From: Patescibacteria group bacterium
GTDB taxonomy: Bacteria > Patescibacteriota > Patescibacteriia > UBA9934 > GWF2-40-263
Length of the DNA stretch: 64,000 nt
Direction of reading: 5' to 3'
Assembly: GCA_041661745.1 (NCBI GenBank)
Contig: JBAZTR010000003.1
Location: 11,965-75,964, forward strand
Shown: one piece after another, positions 5,809 to 26,722 of the stretch
Layout of the letters: each line of letters starts with the position of its first letter
Position numbering within the stretch: the stretch's first letter is position 1
The notes under the pieces: model-generated
Told to the model about the DNA's origin: nothing
Seen by the model: only the letters and a program-made list of their open reading frames with translations
Databases searched by the model: none
Made by a program: the position numbers and the translations under genes

Positions 5809-6612
5809 TTATTTTTTAAACAATAACGAAAACAACTTTAACCAATCGTTCGGGGTCAAATTTTCCGCTCTGGATTTTTCGTCCAAAGCGATTTTTTTAA
5901 GAGTTTCTTTGGCTTTTTCTGAGGAACAGACTTTGGTCTTAGCTAAATTGCCATGCAATTGTTTTCGACGAGAGGAAAAGCCAGCTTTCACAATTTTTAA
6001 AACCTCTTCCGGATCAATACCACCCAACCGTTCGGTTCTTAGGTCTAATCGAACCACAGTGGAATCAACTTTCGGCGGTGGATTAAAGGCGCCGCGCTTA
6101 ACTTGCATCATTTTTTTGCCTTCAGCATACAGCTGACAAGCAATGGAAAGAACACTGGTCTTGGGCGGAACCGCCAACAAACGATCGGCGACTTCGCGCT
6201 GAACCATTAAGGTTAAACGCTTTGGCCGCGGTTTGACAGTAAATAACTTTTCCAAAATCGGCGAAGTAATGTTGTATGGAATGTTGGCAACAACAGAATA
6301 ATCTTTATTAATAACACGACGGAGTTCTTTCCAAACTTCGTCAGACAAAATATCACCGTAAACTAACCTCACCCCGTCCCTCTCCTTCGTAAGGAGAGGG
6401 AGAATTCGTTGCAATGGTTCAATTAGATCTTTGTCGGCTTCCACGGCCACAACCTTGGCCCCGGCCTCAAGCAAGGCCGTTGTCAAACTTCCCCGCCCCG
6501 GGCCTATTTCTAATATCAAATCGCCGGCCTTAACGCCGGCCGCTTCAACAATTTTACGGACAATATTTTTGTCCGTAAGAAAATTCTGCCCAAAAGATTT
6601 TTTGGCTCTCAT
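5809..6612 (-). CDS. rsmA: 16S rRNA (adenine1518/1519-N6)-dimethyltransferase RsmA/KsgA
   Basis: SFGQNFL and LEIGPGRGSLT motifs; NIPYNITSPIL. Contains an in-frame GC-rich palindrome (see repeat 6367-6401). Confidence 0.9.
   Translation of the reverse strand: MRAKKSFGQNFLTDKNIVRKIVEAAGVKAGDLILEIGPGRGSLTTALLEAGAKVVAVEADKDLIEPLQRILPLLTKERDGVRLVYGDILSDEVWKELRRVINKDYSVVANIPYNITSPILEKLFTVKPRPKRLTLMVQREVADRLLAVPPKTSVLSIACQLYAEGKKMMQVKRGAFNPPPKVDSTVVRLDLRTERLGGIDPEEVLKIVKAGFSSRRKQLHGNLAKTKVCSSEKAKETLKKIALDEKSRAENLTPNDWLKLFSLLFKK
6367..6401. repeat. GC-rich palindromic mini-element inside ksgA: CCTCACCCC GT CCCTCTCCTT cgt AAGGAGAGGG (10-bp stem, 3-nt loop)
   Basis: Perfect inverted repeat 6378-6387 / 6391-6400. 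Near-identical copy in opposite orientation in valS (24849-24883). Translates in-frame as ILPLLTKERDGVR. Confidence 0.75.
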
Positions 6613-7192: not shown

Positions 7193-8131
7193 TTAACGTC
7201 CTTTTTGTTTAAACCACTCGACGGTTTTTTGTAGCCCGTCGTCAATTCTAACCTGTGGCCGCCAAGCCAGTTCCTTGGCGGCTTTACGACTATCCAAAGC
7301 CGAACGGAAAACTTCGCCCGGGCCCGGTGGACCATGACGCTCTGGTAAGTCAGAATTGGTAATTTTTTTAAGTTTTCTAAAAATTTGATTAATATTAACT
7401 TCTTTCCCGGTTCCCAAATTAAAAATTCCATGAACGTTTTTTGTTAAAGCTAACATGTTGGCGCGAACAATGTCTTCAACAAAAACAAAATCTCGCGATT
7501 GTGTTCCGGCTCCGTTAATGGTTATCGGCCGACCAGCCAACATTCGTTCGGTAAAAATAGCCACCACCCCGGCTTCCCCATCCGAACGCTGACGCGGGCC
7601 GTAAACATTGGCATAGCGCAAAACCACGCAGTGAAGGCCGCGGACCGCGTGTTCAAAATTTAAATACATTTCCGTGGCCCGTTTAGAAATGGCATAAGGT
7701 GAAAGTGGTTGTTCCACGGTTTTTTCGGAATAGGGCGGACGAATGGAATCCGAATACATAGCTCCGCCGGAGGAAGAAAAAATAATCTTTTTAACCCCGT
7801 ATTTTACGGCCGCTTCGGCCAAAGCCAAAGAACCCAAAAGATTAATTTTGGCATCGTTAAGTGGATCTTTAACCGAATGACGAACATCAATTTGCGCCGC
7901 CAAATGAAAAATCACGTCGGGTTTAATTTTTTCGATCAACTTCGGCAAGAGTGGACTAGTTATGTCCATCTTAAAAAACTGGGCATTGGGATTAACATTT
8001 TTCTGACTGCCAGTCGACAAGTCATCAACAACAAAAGTCTTAATTCGTCGTTGAATTAAAGCATCAACAATGTGCGAACCAATGAAACCGGCCCCACCGG
8101 TTACCAAAGCTCTTTGAATTTTTTTTGCCAT
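7193..8131 (-). CDS. NAD-dependent epimerase/dehydratase (UDP-glucose 4-epimerase-like)
   Basis: N-terminal GGAGFIGSH Rossmann motif; YANVYGPRQ catalytic-region motif. Confidence 0.8.
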   Translation of the reverse strand: MAKKIQRALVTGGAGFIGSHIVDALIQRRIKTFVVDDLSTGSQKNVNPNAQFFKMDITSPLLPKLIEKIKPDVIFHLAAQIDVRHSVKDPLNDAKINLLGSLALAEAAVKYGVKKIIFSSSGGAMYSDSIRPPYSEKTVEQPLSPYAISKRATEMYLNFEHAVRGLHCVVLRYANVYGPRQRSDGEAGVVAIFTERMLAGRPITINGAGTQSRDFVFVEDIVRANMLALTKNVHGIFNLGTGKEVNINQIFRKLKKITNSDLPERHGPPGPGEVFRSALDSRKAAKELAWRPQVRIDDGLQKTVEWFKQKGR

Positions 8132-13513: not shown

Positions 13514-14788
13514 TCAACTATTAATTTGCTGGTTAGTGGGCTTGGAGATAACCACCAAAACCACGGCCACTAGGGCCAAACCAGCCCACTGGCTCCAAAG
13601 ATAATGATCAAAGACACCGAGAACAGCAAGAGAAACAAGGGGACTAAGGGACGGGAGAGACTGAAGAGACTGGCCGGAAAAAAGTACCCACAAAAAATAG
13701 ATTAAAAAAACCAAACCCAATAAACCAGTCTCAGCAAAGAAAAGAAGGTAGGAATTGTGCATTGGTTGATACGACCAGACCGGTTGGCCGGGATAAAGTT
13801 TTTCTAAAGCTAGAGTGTAGGCACCTGGACCAACACCGACAAACGGATTTGTTTTTATTACTTCGCCGATCATGTGATACTCACTCTGCCGTTCCGTTAA
13901 CGATTGTTCTTCCAAACGATCGGCCGCGGCCACGCGAGTAAAAACCGCGTCGGAAAATAGGGCAAGCGGAGCGGCCGCGGCCAAAATGACAATAATCAAA
14001 CCAAGTAAAAATTTTTGCGGTATTTTTTTTCTGGAAATAACACTGCTGACAAAAAAGAAAATTATTCCGACAATCAAAGCCAACCAGGCCGAACGGGAAA
14101 ATGTCACTACCAAAGTTGATGACAATAAAACCAGGATCGCCACAAGAGCTGGCCGCTTTGAAAATCGTAACAAAATCATCATCACGACCACGGCCAAATA
14201 TCCACCAAAAATATTCGGGTGGGCGAAAGTGCCATAGGCCCGCATCAAACGCTCGCCAATTACTTCAACCACCGAGGTGCCGGGCGTTGCCGCCAAATGT
14301 TCGGCTAAACCGAACAGGGTCGAAGCCGGACTGACACCAACAAAAACTTGCCACCAACCAATAAGACTCGGCACAATCAGCCCAAGCGAAAAAAACCAAA
14401 TAATTTTTCTAGTCTCGATTCGTTCATCAAGCAAAAGCCAAAACAAAAGCAGGGCGGAAAAAAGATGAAAAAGAAAAGCCCCGGACAAATAAAAATTTAT
14501 TGATAAAAAAGAAACAAAAACCGTGGCCGCAAAAAACAACCAAAGGGTGGCCATTATTTTTTTAGTCGTCTCGTTCTTCTTCGCTTCCCATCTCAACAAA
14601 ACAGCAACAACAATTAAGGCTTGAACAGCATAATGGGTCATCTTACCGTACTCCCACCCTTCCCCGCCGAAGGTTCCGAGCCCGGTCGAGGAGTTAAGGG
14701 TCAGTGAATTATAAATCCACACTGTCTGCCACGGCAGAAGAAACAAACAAAGATAGGTTAAAAAATTAGCTAGCTCCGTACGCTTCAT
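13514..14788 (-). CDS. O-antigen ligase/polymerase family (Wzy_C-like) polytopic membrane protein
   Basis: At least 10 TM segments; FSRSAWLALIVG motif typical of the O-antigen ligase domain. Confidence 0.7.
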   Translation of the reverse strand: MKRTELANFLTYLCLFLLPWQTVWIYNSLTLNSSTGLGTFGGEGWEYGKMTHYAVQALIVVAVLLRWEAKKNETTKKIMATLWLFFAATVFVSFLSINFYLSGAFLFHLFSALLLFWLLLDERIETRKIIWFFSLGLIVPSLIGWWQVFVGVSPASTLFGLAEHLAATPGTSVVEVIGERLMRAYGTFAHPNIFGGYLAVVVMMILLRFSKRPALVAILVLLSSTLVVTFSRSAWLALIVGIIFFFVSSVISRKKIPQKFLLGLIIVILAAAAPLALFSDAVFTRVAAADRLEEQSLTERQSEYHMIGEVIKTNPFVGVGPGAYTLALEKLYPGQPVWSYQPMHNSYLLFFAETGLLGLVFLIYFLWVLFSGQSLQSLPSLSPLVSLAVLGVFDHYLWSQWAGLALVAVVLVVISKPTNQQINS

Positions 14789-15719
14789 AAATTTTTTTCC
14801 ATTCGTCGCGAAAATGGGCGCGACGGTCGTTTAGATGAAATTTAAGAACACTGTCAGAAACAACAACTCGCGAATCTAGATTAGCCGCGTTTTTTATTGG
14901 TTCGGGGAGAAACTTTTGCTGAAAACGTTTGGCTAGGGTTTCGAGAAAATCCCCCACCCCTTTTCGCCACGTCTGGTGGGGCGACCTTCCCCTCCCCCGG
15001 GGTTGGGAGGGGACCAGAAATGCATTTGGTAAAAAATTAAAAGCCCAGTTATTTTTTTCGTTAAGACGGTTTTGAATTTCATCGCGATCAAAAACCGGAA
15101 CAAGCGAAGCTAGCCAATAAGCCATGTACGGATCCCCTTCGGACAAAAGAAGATCTTTTAAAGATAAATTTTCGTCAGTAACAAAAAAGGAAAAACAGAA
15201 CGGATCAACGGTTGTTTGCTTCGGTCGACGGCCGAGCAGACGGAATGGTGTCACCAGCAAAAGCCGGGTTAGCCAAATTGTCCCTGGCGAAACAACAATA
15301 AACAAATCAATATCACTTTCCGGTGCCGTGTGATGCCAGGCTAAAGTATTGCAAGCAAAAACCGCCCGGACAAAAGGGAAAAAAGAAAAATATTTAGCCG
15401 CCCACCCAAGTTTTTTAAACTTGCGGGCCGCATCCAAAAAACGTTCCTGATGAGTGGCAATAATACCTTCAGCTGAACGGCCGCCCAAAACGAATAAACC
15501 TTCTTTGGCCTCCAGTCGACCACGAAGCCAAAGGCTGGTTCGCAGAGTTTCCTCAACTTCGGCAAATGAACTTTTTACTCCCAACCACTTCCAGATATCA
15601 AAGGCAGTTAAGGGATAATCAAAAAGCGAAAACCAAGCCACGGTTTTGACGATGCCGGCTTCTAGAACTGATGGTTTGACCTGATCCATACGCAGGTATC
15701 TTATCACGCCCAAAATCAA
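14766..15719 (-). CDS. Hypothetical protein with a nucleotidyltransferase-like DIDLFIVV motif
   Basis: 317 aa. Carries the in-frame GC-rich palindromic insert at 14951-15014, encoding ..SQPRGRGRSPHQTWRKGVGDF.. Confidence 0.45.
   Translation of the reverse strand: MILGVIRYLRMDQVKPSVLEAGIVKTVAWFSLFDYPLTAFDIWKWLGVKSSFAEVEETLRTSLWLRGRLEAKEGLFVLGGRSAEGIIATHQERFLDAARKFKKLGWAAKYFSFFPFVRAVFACNTLAWHHTAPESDIDLFIVVSPGTIWLTRLLLVTPFRLLGRRPKQTTVDPFCFSFFVTDENLSLKDLLLSEGDPYMAYWLASLVPVFDRDEIQNRLNEKNNWAFNFLPNAFLVPSQPRGRGRSPHQTWRKGVGDFLETLAKRFQQKFLPEPIKNAANLDSRVVVSDSVLKFHLNDRRAHFRDEWKKIYEAYGAS
14951..15014. repeat. GC-rich double-hairpin element inside a coding sequence (CCCCACC..GGTGGGG and CCCCTCCC ccggggtt GGGAGGGG)
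   Basis: Far more G+C-rich than the surrounding gene. The reading frame is maintained. Confidence 0.65.
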
Positions 15720-22883: not shown

Positions 22884-24074
22884 TTATCGAACTACTCTAA
22901 CAAATCCACGCTTGCCTTTTTGTACCACGATTCCTTTCGGCACGACAAAGTCATAAGATTTAACGACTTCCCCATCAACCTTAACCCCGCCACCATCAAT
23001 TAAACGGCGAGCCTCGCCTTTGGAAGCAGCTAACTTGGTTTCCACAAGGACATCGATAACATTCATTGAACCAGAAATTTTAACTTCCGAAATTTCCTCG
23101 GGGATTTCTTTGTCGCGGAACATTTTATCGAAATTGGCTTGTGCCTCGGTTGCAGCTTTTTCAGAATGAAAAATTTTGACCACTTCAAAAGCCAAACGAG
23201 CTTTTTGATCGCGCGGATTGGCCATTTCTTTTTTTAATGCGGTAATTTCTTCCGAAGCTACGTCGGTAATTAACTCGAAACCTCCGTCGATCATTTCATC
23301 TGGCCAACTCATGATTTTGCCAAACATTTCATCAGCTGAATCCATGAGGGTAATCATGTTGCCTTCGCTCTTCCCCATCTTCTTACCAGTCGGATCGGTC
23401 AGAAGTTTCATAGTCATGACAAACTTTTCTTTTTTCTTCAAAATCTTCATCAAATCCCGCCCGGCCAACATGTTGAAAGTCTGATCGTTCCCGCCGATTT
23501 CACCATCGACATCCATTGCCACAGAATCGTAAGCTTGCATTAAAGGATACAAAAATTCATGAAGATGAATCGGTTTGCCTTCGGACATGCGTTTTTGAAA
23601 CATGTCGCGCTCAAGCATTTGTTGAACTGTAAAGTTGGAGGCCAATCCGACCACATCAACAAAGGACATTTTGGCCAACCATTTGCTATTAAACTTAATA
23701 ATGGCCGAATTTTTTCCAGAAAAAGAAATAAATTTCGAAGCTTGTTTTTTGTACAACTTACAATTAGCCAAAACTTGTTTTCTGGTAAGCATTTGGCGCG
23801 TGGCCGACTTGTCGGTAGGGTCGCCGATCGTGCCGGTAAAATCACCAATAAGAAGAACGACTTTGTGGCCAAGCTCTTGAAACAACTTAAGCTTGCGCAA
23901 GTTAATGGCGTGTCCCAAGTGAAGGGTTGGGCCGGTCGGATCGATACCAAGATATAAAGTCAGCGGCTCTTTACCCATTAATTTGGCACGGAGAAAATCG
24001 GCTGTGGGATAAACATTTTCCACGCCGCGAGTTAGAAGCTGATTTATTTTATTTTGGTCATGGATAGGTTTCAT
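22884..24074 (-). CDS. tyrS: Tyrosine--tRNA ligase
   Basis: LYLGIDPTGPTLHLGHA (HIGH), KMGKS, C-terminal S4 domain. Confidence 0.9.
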   Translation of the reverse strand: MKPIHDQNKINQLLTRGVENVYPTADFLRAKLMGKEPLTLYLGIDPTGPTLHLGHAINLRKLKLFQELGHKVVLLIGDFTGTIGDPTDKSATRQMLTRKQVLANCKLYKKQASKFISFSGKNSAIIKFNSKWLAKMSFVDVVGLASNFTVQQMLERDMFQKRMSEGKPIHLHEFLYPLMQAYDSVAMDVDGEIGGNDQTFNMLAGRDLMKILKKKEKFVMTMKLLTDPTGKKMGKSEGNMITLMDSADEMFGKIMSWPDEMIDGGFELITDVASEEITALKKEMANPRDQKARLAFEVVKIFHSEKAATEAQANFDKMFRDKEIPEEISEVKISGSMNVIDVLVETKLAASKGEARRLIDGGGVKVDGEVVKSYDFVVPKGIVVQKGKRGFVRVVR

Positions 24075-26722
24075 AGAGTGGAAATTTGTTGGTTCAAGGC
24101 TTCGGCTTTTTTGGCCGCCTCGTCCCGTTTTTGTTTCATGTCCTCGACTACTTTAGCCGGGGCTTTGGAAATAAATTCCTGGTTGGCAAGTTTGCCATCG
24201 AGACTGACAATATATTTTTTGGCTTCTTCAAGTTCAACAGACAAACGTTCGCGCTCTTTACCGGCGTCAATTTGACGATCAACTTTAAATTGATAATCAA
24301 ACGAGCCGTCTTTATTTTCCTCAATCACGAGATTTTCCACGCGCGACAAAGTTTTGATAATTTCAAGATTAATTTCGTCTTTAAAAATTTCAAAATATTC
24401 GCCAACAATAAGGGTCACATTAATTTTTTCTTTTGGTTCAACCTTGTTCTCGGCACGCCAGTTACGAAGTTTCTCGATTATTTCTCTCAAGCGTTCAAAT
24501 TCGGTATTGTTTTGTTTTGAAACCTTTACCTCCGGCCAATCATGAACAATCAACATTTTATCTGAGCCAAAATTGCTCCAAAGCTCTTCGGTCACAAACG
24601 GCATGAATGGATGCCACAAAACCAAAACTTGTTCCAAAACGTAAAGAAGAATCTCGTCGGTATTTTTCTCGAGTTTGGAATCCTTTCGTTGAATCTTGGC
24701 GATTTCCAAATACCAATCAGCCAATTCGCTCCAAGTAAAATCACGAAGAACTTCACCAGCTTGCGAGAACTCATATTTTTCCAAGTGATTGGTAACTTTT
24801 TCCGTCACCTCGGACAAACGACCAAGAATCCAATTATCGGCTAGTGTCATTGGGTTCGCCCTCTCCCTGAGGGAGAGGGTTGGGGTGAGGGATGTGGTTG
24901 TCAAAACAAAACGTGAAATGTTCCACAACTTATTTGTAAAGTTACGGAAGCCGGCAATCTTCTCTTCGTACATTTTGAAGTCATTGCCCGGACTGGTACC
25001 AATAACCATCGAAAGTCGCACTGCGTCAGCTCCGTACTTTTCAACCATCTCAATGGGGTCAATAGCATTGCCGGCTGACTTTGACATCTTCTTCCCGGCT
25101 TCGTCGCGAACAAGGCCGTGCAAATAAACATTTTTAAACGGTACTTCGCCAAGAGTGTAAGTGGTCATGAGAATCATGCGGGCGACCCAAAAGAAAATAA
25201 TGTCATAACCGGTCTCGAGGACAGTGGTCGGATGATACATTTCAAAATCTTCGGTCTTGTTCGGCCAACCGAGAGTGGAGAAAGTCCATAGGCCAGAAGA
25301 AAACCAAGTGTCGAGAGTATCCTCGTCGCGTTTCCAATCGTCACCAGGCGCTTCTGAACCAATATTAATTTCGTCGCCGCGATACCAAACCGGCACTTGA
25401 TGCCCAAACCAAATCTGACGACTAATATTCCAATCACGCAAGTTATCAATCCAATGAAAATACGTGCCGACGAATTGTTCGGGAATAATTTTTATCTGAT
25501 TAGAACACACCACGTGCTGCATTAGCTCTTTCAAAGTAATTTCCTGATCATCTTTCAAACCTTCGATCGGCGCGTGTTTCGAAGCGTGGAACTTGAACGG
25601 TTTATTTACACCAATAAACCATTGAAGTTTAGGTAACGGTTCAACCGCTGCACCACAACGATAACAAACCGAAAGATTTTGCGGCGTTTCTTCTTCTTTT
25701 TCAATCAACCCCTCGTTTCGCAGTTGCTCAATAATTTTTTCTCGGGCTTCAAGGACCGACAAACCAGCAAAAGCTCCGGCTTCGGCAGTCATAACGCCGT
25801 CTTCCCCGATCACAGTTATAACTGGCAAATTATTTTTCTGTGCCATCTCGGCGTCGATTTGACTGTGAGCCGGGGTAACCCCAAGCGCGCCGGTTCCGAA
25901 AGCCGGATCAACAGCTGAATCGGCAATAACTTTTATGGAAAGTTTTTGACCAACAAAATTCGCTTCAAGTGTTTGCCCGATAAATTTCTGGTAATGTTCA
26001 TCATCAGGATGAACAGCCACGGCCGTATCACCAAGTTTAGTTTCCGGACGTGTTGTAGAAATGGAGATTGGAAAATTTTTGTCGTATTTAAAAGTATAAA
26101 ACTTGGCAGTTGTTTCCTTGTGTTCCACTTCATCATCAGCCAAAGTTGATTTGCAACGCGGGCACCAGTTGATAACGCGGTGACCACGGTAAATCAAACC
26201 ATCGTCATACATCATTTTAAAAACTGTGTTGACAGCTTTGTTTCGGTCTTCGTCCAAAGTGTAACACTCACGCGACCAGTCGAGCGAAGCCCCCATTTTT
26301 TTAATTTGATGAACAATGGTGTCGTGCGAGGCCGCGGCAAACTTTTTTACTTCTTCAAGAAAAGCTTCACGCCCAAGTTCGCGGCGCGGATCTTTCATGC
26401 CTTTTTTAATAAGTTCTTTTTCAACCTTGGTTTGAGTGGCAATAGCCGCATGATCAGTGCCAGGAATCCAAAGAGCCCGTTTTCCCTGCATGCGAGCAAA
26501 ACGAGTCATGGTGTCCTCTAGGGCCAACATTGAAGCGTGACCCAGGTGAAGAATACCGGTGACATTAGGCGGTGGCAGAACCATGGAAAAAGTTTCTTTG
26601 CGCTTTTCAAGATCAGGCAGGTTTTCCGGACGAAAAAAACCGCTCTTTTCCCAAGCGGCATAAATATTGTCCTCATGATTTTGCGGCTCGTAAGCCTTGG
26701 GGAGGTCTGGTTGATTGGGCAT
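24071..26722 (-). CDS. valS: Valine--tRNA ligase
   Basis: PPNVTGILHLGHA, KMSKSAGN, editing domain, C-terminal coiled coil. 4-nt overlap with tyrS. Confidence 0.95.
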   Translation of the reverse strand: MPNQPDLPKAYEPQNHEDNIYAAWEKSGFFRPENLPDLEKRKETFSMVLPPPNVTGILHLGHASMLALEDTMTRFARMQGKRALWIPGTDHAAIATQTKVEKELIKKGMKDPRRELGREAFLEEVKKFAAASHDTIVHQIKKMGASLDWSRECYTLDEDRNKAVNTVFKMMYDDGLIYRGHRVINWCPRCKSTLADDEVEHKETTAKFYTFKYDKNFPISISTTRPETKLGDTAVAVHPDDEHYQKFIGQTLEANFVGQKLSIKVIADSAVDPAFGTGALGVTPAHSQIDAEMAQKNNLPVITVIGEDGVMTAEAGAFAGLSVLEAREKIIEQLRNEGLIEKEEETPQNLSVCYRCGAAVEPLPKLQWFIGVNKPFKFHASKHAPIEGLKDDQEITLKELMQHVVCSNQIKIIPEQFVGTYFHWIDNLRDWNISRQIWFGHQVPVWYRGDEINIGSEAPGDDWKRDEDTLDTWFSSGLWTFSTLGWPNKTEDFEMYHPTTVLETGYDIIFFWVARMILMTTYTLGEVPFKNVYLHGLVRDEAGKKMSKSAGNAIDPIEMVEKYGADAVRLSMVIGTSPGNDFKMYEEKIAGFRNFTNKLWNISRFVLTTTSLTPTLSLRERANPMTLADNWILGRLSEVTEKVTNHLEKYEFSQAGEVLRDFTWSELADWYLEIAKIQRKDSKLEKNTDEILLYVLEQVLVLWHPFMPFVTEELWSNFGSDKMLIVHDWPEVKVSKQNNTEFERLREIIEKLRNWRAENKVEPKEKINVTLIVGEYFEIFKDEINLEIIKTLSRVENLVIEENKDGSFDYQFKVDRQIDAGKERERLSVELEEAKKYIVSLDGKLANQEFISKAPAKVVEDMKQKRDEAAKKAEALNQQISTL
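24849..24883. repeat. GC-rich palindromic mini-element inside valS (CCCTCTCCC tga GGGAGAGGG TTGGGGTGAGGGA), same family as 6367-6401 but in opposite orientation
   Basis: Encodes SLTPTLSLRERA in-frame within a variable linker. Confidence 0.75.

Follow-up and report, generated by a model that had tools for sequence, protein, structure and literature searches.

A GC-rich double-hairpin segment in a Patescibacteria gene as a putative enlarged copy of a dispersed, BoxC-like repeat

Introduction

How does a 64-nt segment that is far richer in G+C than its surroundings, and that folds on itself twice, come to be translated within a bacterial gene? The segment in question lies at 14951-15014 of a 64,000-nt stretch of contig JBAZTR010000003.1 from a Patescibacteria group bacterium (the window, in whose coordinates positions are given), inside an open reading frame (ORF) for a hypothetical protein. 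A preliminary description, made from the letters of the DNA, called it an insert with two hairpins, read through in frame, and placed it in one class with GC-rich palindromes in the ksgA and valS genes of the same window. Comparison with related loci (labelled Lnnn) leads us to think that, on balance, the segment is probably a derived, enlarged copy of a dispersed repeat composed of a C-stem, a G-stem and a mirrored G-block, the layout of the BoxC/PIT/TM_ECO motifs. Knowledge of these motifs dates back to the 1990s; neither their function nor the way in which they spread is established, and they were described as strictly intergenic. Earlier work on the BoxC/PIT motif was reportedly that of Bachellier and of Hoyne and Maher.

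A GC-rich segment with two hairpins

The sequence of the segment, CCCCCACCCCTTTTCGCCACGTCTGGTGGGGCGACCTTCCCCTCCCCCGGGGTTGGGAGGGGAC, is identical to that quoted in the preliminary description. Its G+C content is 73.4%, compared with 43.5% for the remainder of the ORF, and lies about 3 standard deviations over the mean of 60-nt windows across the stretch, although some 20 other places, for the most part in high-GC islands, reach 0.70 too. Both hairpins that had been proposed are present and perfectly paired (Table 1). The spacer that follows the main hairpin holds a small inverted repeat of its own, TCGCC(CC)AC/GTGGCGA, together with the CCCCACC arm of the second hairpin, in which the third block serves as the other arm. 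Of perfect GC-rich hairpins with 9 bp or more the window contains three, compared with 0.17 expected from 30 first-order Markov simulations, and shuffled sequences yielded no C-rich hairpins of the focal type.

Folding of 104 nt as RNA, on both strands, gave energies not beyond those of dinucleotide shuffles (z = +0.5), and we did not count folding energy as evidence because C/G tracts of this sort fold well in whatever order they are shuffled. The minimum free energy of the 64-mer was -32.9 kcal/mol, under energy models that cover Watson–Crick and G-U pairing only. On the coding strand, four tracts of four to five G residues (GGGGG A GGGG ... GGGG T GGGGG) stand beside the competing hairpin. 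We infer that the focal DNA or RNA can form two hairpins; it might also form a triplex or, with its four G-tracts, a G-quadruplex.

A dispersed repeat family in Uhrbacteria

Perfect hairpins of a C-stem and a G-stem, followed by a G-block, occurred 40 times in 1.28 Mb (the window plus related loci) and not once in shuffles. A covariance model (CM R1) was made from 17 canonical copies from other genomes. Run over 1.33 Mb of Uhrbacteria DNA, it gave 33 distinct matches with E < 0.05, among them the ksgA and valS elements of the window; almost every match was inside an open frame. The canonical form reads (A)AT-CCCCTCC-TTnCnAA-GGAGGGG-TYR-GGGGTGG-T, where the first loop is TTnCnAA or 3-6 nt and 1-3 nt occupy the place of the focal spacer. 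Stems are of the types CCCTCTCC, CCCCTCC, CTCCCCC, CCCCCCC and CCCTCCCC, and C4/G4-type stems (CCCCTCC/GGAGGGG) are ordinary variants of the family in related genomes. The third block mirrors the G-stem, its A being either retained or turned into T, as where GAGGGGG follows GGGGGAG; after asymmetric hairpins we found a mirror block in 28 of 38 cases and a direct repeat in 10. Near-identical copies of the form CCCTCTCC-TTnCnAA-GGAGAGGG-nn-GGGGTGAGGT occur at unrelated genes and in unrelated genomes, and the family is therefore a dispersed repeat and not convergent local sequence. Of 39 elements, 22 are sense and 17 antisense, 38 lie inside open frames of at least 80 amino acids (aa), and all three frames are read; in GC-rich loci, taking the longest open frame assigns the frame only approximately. 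A count of covarying hairpin positions on alignment A3 was not used as evidence, being circular for sequences preselected for perfect stems. We conclude that the family is dispersed and defined by its structure, with copies in variable protein loops in both orientations.

Two canonical copies lie in the window. The one in the ksgA/RsmA-like gene is the top-scoring canonical copy of the window (CM R1, 42.3 bits, E 4e-8); it runs in the sense direction, encodes ..ILPLLTKERDGVR.. and lengthens its loop by 6 aa relative to L003. The one in valS scores 22.3 bits (E 0.002), is translated as ..SLTPTLSLRERA.. and leaves the length of its loop nearly unchanged (+1 aa). The latter exactly fits the E. 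coli TM_ECO/BoxC pattern as published; used as a regular expression, that pattern finds only this element and one at L057 3321. Elsewhere the same valS loop holds a sense copy of the CCCTCCCC type (L044 567-600) or a purine-rich GEGKGIKGEEREGK tract (L003).

The focal segment presents three blocks, CCCCTCCC, GGGAGGGG and GGGGTGGGGG, in the family order on the coding strand. The first two form a C-rich homopyrimidine stem followed by its complementary G-stem (TCCCCTCCC/GGGAGGGGA, 9 bp, perfect), and a mirror match to the G-stem, GGGGTGGG, is found 28 nt past it. Once the spacer was deleted, the segment aligned end to end with positions 4-36 of a hidden Markov model (HMM) built from 30 canonical elements and scored 11.6 bits, whereas the full sequence scored 5.6. 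Of 2000 shuffles matched in composition, none scored above 5.1 bits, the absolute focal score being modest, and deletion of exactly the spacer gave the top score among the deletion positions tried. The canonical type nearest to the focal segment is that of L044 567-600, CCCTCCCC-TTACCCAA-GGGGAGGG-TT-GGGGTGGGG. Enlarged copies are known from other loci: loop 2 spans 27-32 nt in L009 and L011, and loop 1 of L065 contains a 28-nt palindrome that belongs to a second family, CCTGCCTGCCGGCAGGCAGG.

The host protein and its linker in orthologues

The host protein matched no family in a Pfam search, and its homologues, from Candidatus Uhrbacteria and other Patescibacteria, are likewise hypothetical proteins. 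An SDIDL motif is invariant in their alignment, and Foldseek returned weak matches to AadA, MNT and kanamycin nucleotidyltransferase (KNTase; E 0.02-0.3). The preliminary assignment as nucleotidyltransferase-like, which would here mean the Pol-beta type, is accordingly plausible but weakly supported by motif and model. The element is translated as ..VPSQPRGRGRSPHQTWRKGVGD.., at about residues 235-256 of the 317-aa ORF, and the frame is kept through it, as had been proposed: the conserved C-terminal part (..FLETLAKRFQQKFLP..LKFHLNDRR..) continues in the same frame in every homologue. An AlphaFold model of the protein has a predicted local distance difference test score of 88.7 overall, but residues 230-254, which join helix 226-229 to helix 255-269, are modelled as a coil with low confidence. 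The element's residues fall in this coil, and the peptide is therefore expected in a floppy surface linker.

We read the states of this linker from protein and DNA alignments of close relatives, within a wider set of 88 orthologues. An homologous element in the same orientation is common to the window and L001 only (protein P0003, 74% identical), the independent genome that carries it being represented by two assemblies, L001 and L002. Four relatives (L003, L006, L007 and L008) have an AT-rich linker of 24-33% GC that encodes ..FFLPLGFLRIFE.. and resembles the linker of distant homologues. Two others (L004 and L005) have a different element, of CTCTCC type and opposite orientation, in the same linker. 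The stem in L001 is likewise perfect over 9 bp, with its sequence shifted (TCCCCCTCC/GGAGGGGGA, compared with TCCCCTCCC/GGGAGGGGA). Conservation of the peptide among orthologues, which the preliminary description had named as the observation that would count against an insert, was not found: only L001 shares the peptide, and the focal element is absent from 86 of the 88.

The linker measures 29 aa in the window and 24 aa in element-free close relatives. Because it is only 5 aa longer, the 64-nt element must have replaced about 16 ancestral codons. Alignment of filled with empty sites revealed no target motif, nor a target duplication of the kind that marks MITEs together with terminal inverted repeats, at about 75% identity, which blurs the boundaries. 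The proposed insert is thus lineage-specific, but on the aligned sequences it is a replacement and no clean insertion.

The same linker has been occupied more than once. Elements with C/G blocks are found there in 9 of the 88 orthologues (the window, L001, L004, L005, L027, L028, L035, L057 and L065); of the eight other than the window, seven are independent of the focal element, that of L001 being its orthologue. The linker elements of L035 and L065 are inverted pairs.

Origin of the segment

The origin that we favour would have the following course. A copy of the repeat, which already carried a 28-nt palindromic spacer in its second loop or gained it later, would have entered the linker in the common ancestor of the window genome and L001, or would have passed between them, displacing about 16 ancestral codons. 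It may persist because the loop tolerates the translated Pro/Arg/Gly-rich coil, as a passenger without a role for the host. No terminal repeat or target duplication was seen, and no transposase among the ten ORFs searched against Pfam. With low confidence, we favour spread by templated repair or gene-conversion-like patching over classical transposition, because the elements replace loop sequence of similar length (+5 aa in the focal linker, +6 aa in ksgA and +1 aa in valS) and because the G-stem at a third site, in a neighbouring Wzy_C gene, coincides with a block that encodes a conserved GEGEY motif.

A number of observations weigh against this origin. The segment is not recognised by CM R1, with 12.4 bits (E 0.5) on the + strand and in the wrong register and 8.0 bits (E 5.7) on the focal sense strand, and it does not match the published TM_ECO regular expression. 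Its loops measure 8 and 28 nt, compared with 3-7 and 1-3 nt in canonical copies. The third block is symmetric, so that a direct repeat fits it as well as a mirror does, and the low complexity of G/C tracts inflates apparent similarity. The L001 orthologue keeps neither the mirror rule nor the second hairpin. A blastn-short search with the spacer in 1.37 Mb of related DNA found no other copy, and a scan of JGI metagenome contigs with the spacer pattern AGGNCGCCCCNNCNNNNGTGGCGAAANGG found the L001 contig only; with no other copy of the spacer in the DNA searched, the long form has no known source. The tree of close orthologues, star-like and poorly resolved, does not make the window and L001 sisters. 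As far as sequence goes, membership of the focal segment in the ksgA/valS family is architectural only. Of the single class proposed in the preliminary description, what holds is that the ksgA and valS elements are real family members and that C4/G4 stems are known variants; the focal segment itself stays outside the reach of the family's covariance model.

As an arbiter between one and two origins of the element in the window and L001, the star-like tree was uninformative and was set aside.

Could two unrelated small GC palindromes have merged, CCCCTCCC/GGGAGGGG with either TCGCC..GGCGA or CCCCACC/GGTGGGG, so that the likeness to the family is a coincidence of low complexity? Yeast mitochondrial GC clusters are reported to merge in this way (PMC4478555), and the nesting of the CCTGCCTGCCGGCAGGCAGG family inside triple-block copies would fit such an event, as would the low CM R1 score and the use of the 'third block' as an arm by the second hairpin. 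We nevertheless regard a merger as unlikely, since the block order and the spacer-deleted HMM alignment outdid all shuffles, canonical copies of the family occupy the same linker in seven other orthologues and neither putative unit has a second copy in the JGI contigs or in the 1.37 Mb of related DNA.

Quite improbable, in our judgement, is an origin in place, by slippage or template switching (quasi-palindrome correction) in a Gly/Arg/Pro-coding linker and with no copying. The relatives that lack the element offer no G/C tracts as a seed in their 24-33% GC linker, near-identical canonical copies at non-homologous loci show copying within the family, and close relatives have two types of element in opposite orientations at the same site. 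What speaks for such an origin is that the linker was little lengthened while its sequence was replaced, that the valS loops of the window and L003 are equal in length, that of L003 being the one with purine-rich GEGKGIKGEEREGK, and that the coincidence of G-stem and GEGEY-coding block at the Wzy_C site would be expected from it as well.

The segment might also be kept for a function, either in the mRNA, where a hairpin or G-quadruplex would make translation pause between domains, or as an RG-rich binding peptide. Two genomes have retained the 9-bp stem although its sequence has changed, the mRNA strand is the G-rich strand and the 64-mer has a low free energy. This reading is very improbable, however, given that 86 of the 88 orthologues lack the element and that in others the place is taken by unrelated elements, pointing either way. 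Copies of the family are read in three frames, so no peptide is conserved, and the focal peptide lies in a low-confidence coil. At gathering thresholds, Rfam found tRNAs only over the whole window, and at the segment, with E up to 10, it gave sub-threshold noise (best score 17 bits, compared with a gathering score of 71); a scan for terminators and promoters found nothing at the focal element, and its folding energy is no more favourable than that of shuffles.

A chance fluctuation in composition, or an assembly or chimera artefact, is extremely improbable: despite the other 60-nt windows that reach 70% GC and the local shuffles that fold equally well, perfect 9-bp C/G hairpins exceed expectation in the window, the identical protein occurs on four contigs (from NCBI, JGI, Logan and ENA), so that the segment is not an assembly artefact, and an independent genome has the homologous element in two assemblies.

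Relation to known repeats

BoxC, which is the same as the PIT element and TM_ECO, has the pattern 5'-CCCTCNCCC N3-6 GGGNGAGGG N3 GGGNGAGGG; in vitro it folds into an intrastrand triplex of the purine-motif type (Holder et al. 2015, PMC4666352). The TM_ECO motif has 3610 occurrences in 262 proteobacterial genomes; all 23 of the 23 copies in E. coli K-12 are intergenic, and BoxC is associated with local sequence turnover, with no linked transposase and no known function (PMC4666352). The elements described here share with BoxC the order of blocks, namely a C-rich homopyrimidine stem, a complementary G-stem and a second G-block consistent with a mirror, as in purine-motif triplex geometry. They are likewise GC-rich, present in multiple copies without a linked transposase and associated with local sequence turnover. 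They differ in that the focal stems are CCCCTCCC/GGGAGGGG with loops of 8 and 28 nt, compared with the published 3-6 and 3, and in that the focal element is translated inside a gene, whereas those of E. coli K-12 lie between genes. Here a Patescibacterium is the host, and copies within one genome vary in stem type, unlike those of E. coli, which are nearly identical. As judged from sequence and layout, the Uhrbacteria family is the same kind of element as BoxC/PIT/TM_ECO, in another phylum and inside genes, a correspondence that the preliminary description had not drawn. The same E. coli motif has also been read as a switch between G-quadruplex and hairpin (Kaplan et al. 2016, PMC5100583). The arrangement of G-tracts in such a G-quadruplex–hairpin–duplex switch is that of BoxC, and the focal sense strand has its four G4-5 tracts, but the central loop of a focal quadruplex would be about 28 nt long.

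Rickettsia palindromic elements (RPEs) are palindromic repeats that lie in frame inside protein-coding genes, apparently at positions compatible with the protein fold (PMC10969869). Like the elements studied here, they add new peptide segments to unrelated housekeeping proteins. RPEs, however, are about 100-150 bp long and each family encodes a conserved peptide, whereas the present elements are 33-64 nt long and are read in three frames and both orientations. We know of no sequence similarity between the Uhrbacteria elements and RPEs.

The GC clusters of yeast mitochondria, for which shuffling as well as merging is reported (PMC4478555), and the double-hairpin elements of fungal mitochondrial DNA are also short GC-rich hairpins in a less GC-rich genome, with presence/absence polymorphism and nesting, and the name 'double hairpin' fits the focal segment. 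They are organellar, with reported AG target-site duplications, other sequences and no mirrored third block, and the likeness is an analogy only. REPs are extragenic, with a terminal GTAG or CGTC tag and a co-occurring RAYT gene (PMC3733652). The REP/BIME system, with its RAYT (a Y1 transposase), resembles the present family in consisting of many copies of 20-40-nt GC-rich imperfect palindromes in which hairpin DNA is likely to be recognised, but the focal element is intragenic and has no GTAG or CGTC tag at its ends.

As a copy, the focal element is a degenerate one with no sign of a host function, and the pattern at the level of the family is more interesting. A BoxC architecture stands in frame within conserved genes of a distant, genome-reduced phylum, with one exact match to the E. 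coli pattern; the same protein loops are occupied recurrently and in either orientation, and expanded and nested forms occur. It is a tentative and, we think, doubtful extension of these observations that the unit of hairpin and mirror block is a self-propagating element, cross-phylum and defined by structure, whose co-varying blocks would mean that the triplex-type geometry itself is recognised or selected. In gene-dense Patescibacteria such a unit would have entered the same surface loops of housekeeping proteins again and again (valS, ksgA, Wzy and the nucleotidyltransferase-like protein), turning round, nesting and replacing sequence there. If this were true, the unit would generate diversity in protein loops, and the mechanism by which BoxC/PIT spreads could be read from insertion boundaries resolved to the codon. 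Genome-wide confirmation of the pattern would provide the second bacterial case, after the Rickettsia RPEs, of palindromic repeats that remodel proteins. It would also offer insertion sites anchored to codons, as a basis for inferring target preference and mechanism. It would also be a warning for annotation and alignment in Patescibacteria, in that loop peptides rich in P, S, G, E and R, such as PSPxxGEGRGEV, would be derived from repeats.

Other elements and features of the window

The features discussed above are collected in Table 1 with further hairpins and elements of the window.

Table 1. Coordinates of the focal element, its parts and related features in the window.
Feature	Position	Strand	Sequence	Remarks
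Host ORF	14766..15719	-		317 aa as longest ORF; public annotation starts MDQVK, 307 aa
Whole focal element	14951..15014	-		Coding-strand order: C-stem, loop 1, G-stem 1, 28-nt spacer, third G-block
C-stem of main hairpin	15005..15013	-	(T)CCCCTCCC	9-bp perfect hairpin
Loop 1	14997..15004	-	AACCCCGG	8 nt
G-stem 1	14988..14996	-	GGGAGGGG(A)	Pairs with C-stem
Spacer	14961..14987	-	AAGGTCGCCCCACCAGACGTGGCGAAAA	28 nt when position 14988 is counted
Third block	14951..14960	-	GGGGTGGGGG	Includes GGGGTGGG, which is G-stem 1 mirrored, A changed to T
Main hairpin	14988-15013		TCCCCTCCC/GGGAGGGGA	9 bp perfect, loop 8
Second hairpin	14952-14981		CCCCACC/GGTGGGG	7 bp perfect, loop 16, about -11.9 kcal/mol as RNA
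Third 9-bp perfect GC-rich hairpin	7258-7282		GCCGCCAAG CCAGTTC CTTGGCGGC	Inside ORF 7193..8131(-); not of C/G-tract type
Canonical element in ksgA/RsmA-like gene	6365..6403	-	TCCCTCTCC TTACGAA GGAGAGGGA C GGGGTGAGG	ORF 5809..6612(-)
Canonical element in valS	24856..24892	+	CCCTCTCCC TGA GGGAGAGGG TTG GGGTGAGGG	ORF 24071..26722(-); antisense to gene
Probable decayed copy in Wzy_C/O-antigen-ligase gene	14650..14710	.	CCCACCCTTCCCCGCCGAAGG..	ORF 13514..14788(-), N-terminal loop; C/G-tract remnant, peptide NSSTGLGTFGGEGWEYGK

The third block of the ksgA element encodes residues that align with a conserved strand. The probable decayed copy in the Wzy_C gene lies about 250 nt from the focal element. 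At this site, canonical copies are present in L003, L006, L010 and L082 and expanded copies in L009 and L011, that of L011 being opposite in orientation to that of L009 with an homologous spacer; in most copies the G-stem encodes the conserved GEGEY motif.

The host protein has a second loop, after LGRRP, that is occupied by elements in L009-L011, L046 and L057, those of L011, L046 and L057 being canonical. This second variable loop corresponds to columns 207-280 of alignment A1, where P/S/G/H-rich inserts of up to 56 aa (..LHHSPLRKGFEGQTITLPPSPGFGGTPPKASVGG..) occur, long inserts being found in proteins P0013, P0016-P0018 and P0020. The host ORF shares 23 nt (14766-14788) with the Wzy_C ORF downstream of it, and the gene order YidC, host gene, Wzy_C, GroES is kept in relatives.

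Islands of 70-80% GC stand out in the 45% GC window at 11.0-11.35, 26.9-27.1, 40.7-42.0 and 47.4-47.9 kb, with overlapping open frames on both strands; foreign DNA and a fast-evolving gene are possible origins. A Pfam search of ten ORFs, all in high-GC islands, found no family, so that no transposase or RAYT-like ORF was seen among these ten.

In related loci, members of the family also form close inverted pairs (L035 10612-10706, L018 17042-17133 and L065 10616-10712), as do the 'palindromic' TM pairs of E. coli, and one tandem pair (L036 507-605). Canonical copies are found on contigs classified as viral in IMG/VR (L090-L094), often as inverted pairs, with four copies within the 14 kb fetched of the L092 contig (2921, 4833, 8282 and 9387). 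The second GC-rich palindrome family, CCTGCCTGCCGGCAGGCAGG, has its exact core at L065 10630-10670, L066 10746-10767 and L076 4914-4933 and 10226-10247, with blastn-short matches at L068 3563-3583 and L017 12440-12529; in L066 the palindrome lies inside the linker of the nucleotidyltransferase-like gene (..CLPAGKA..).

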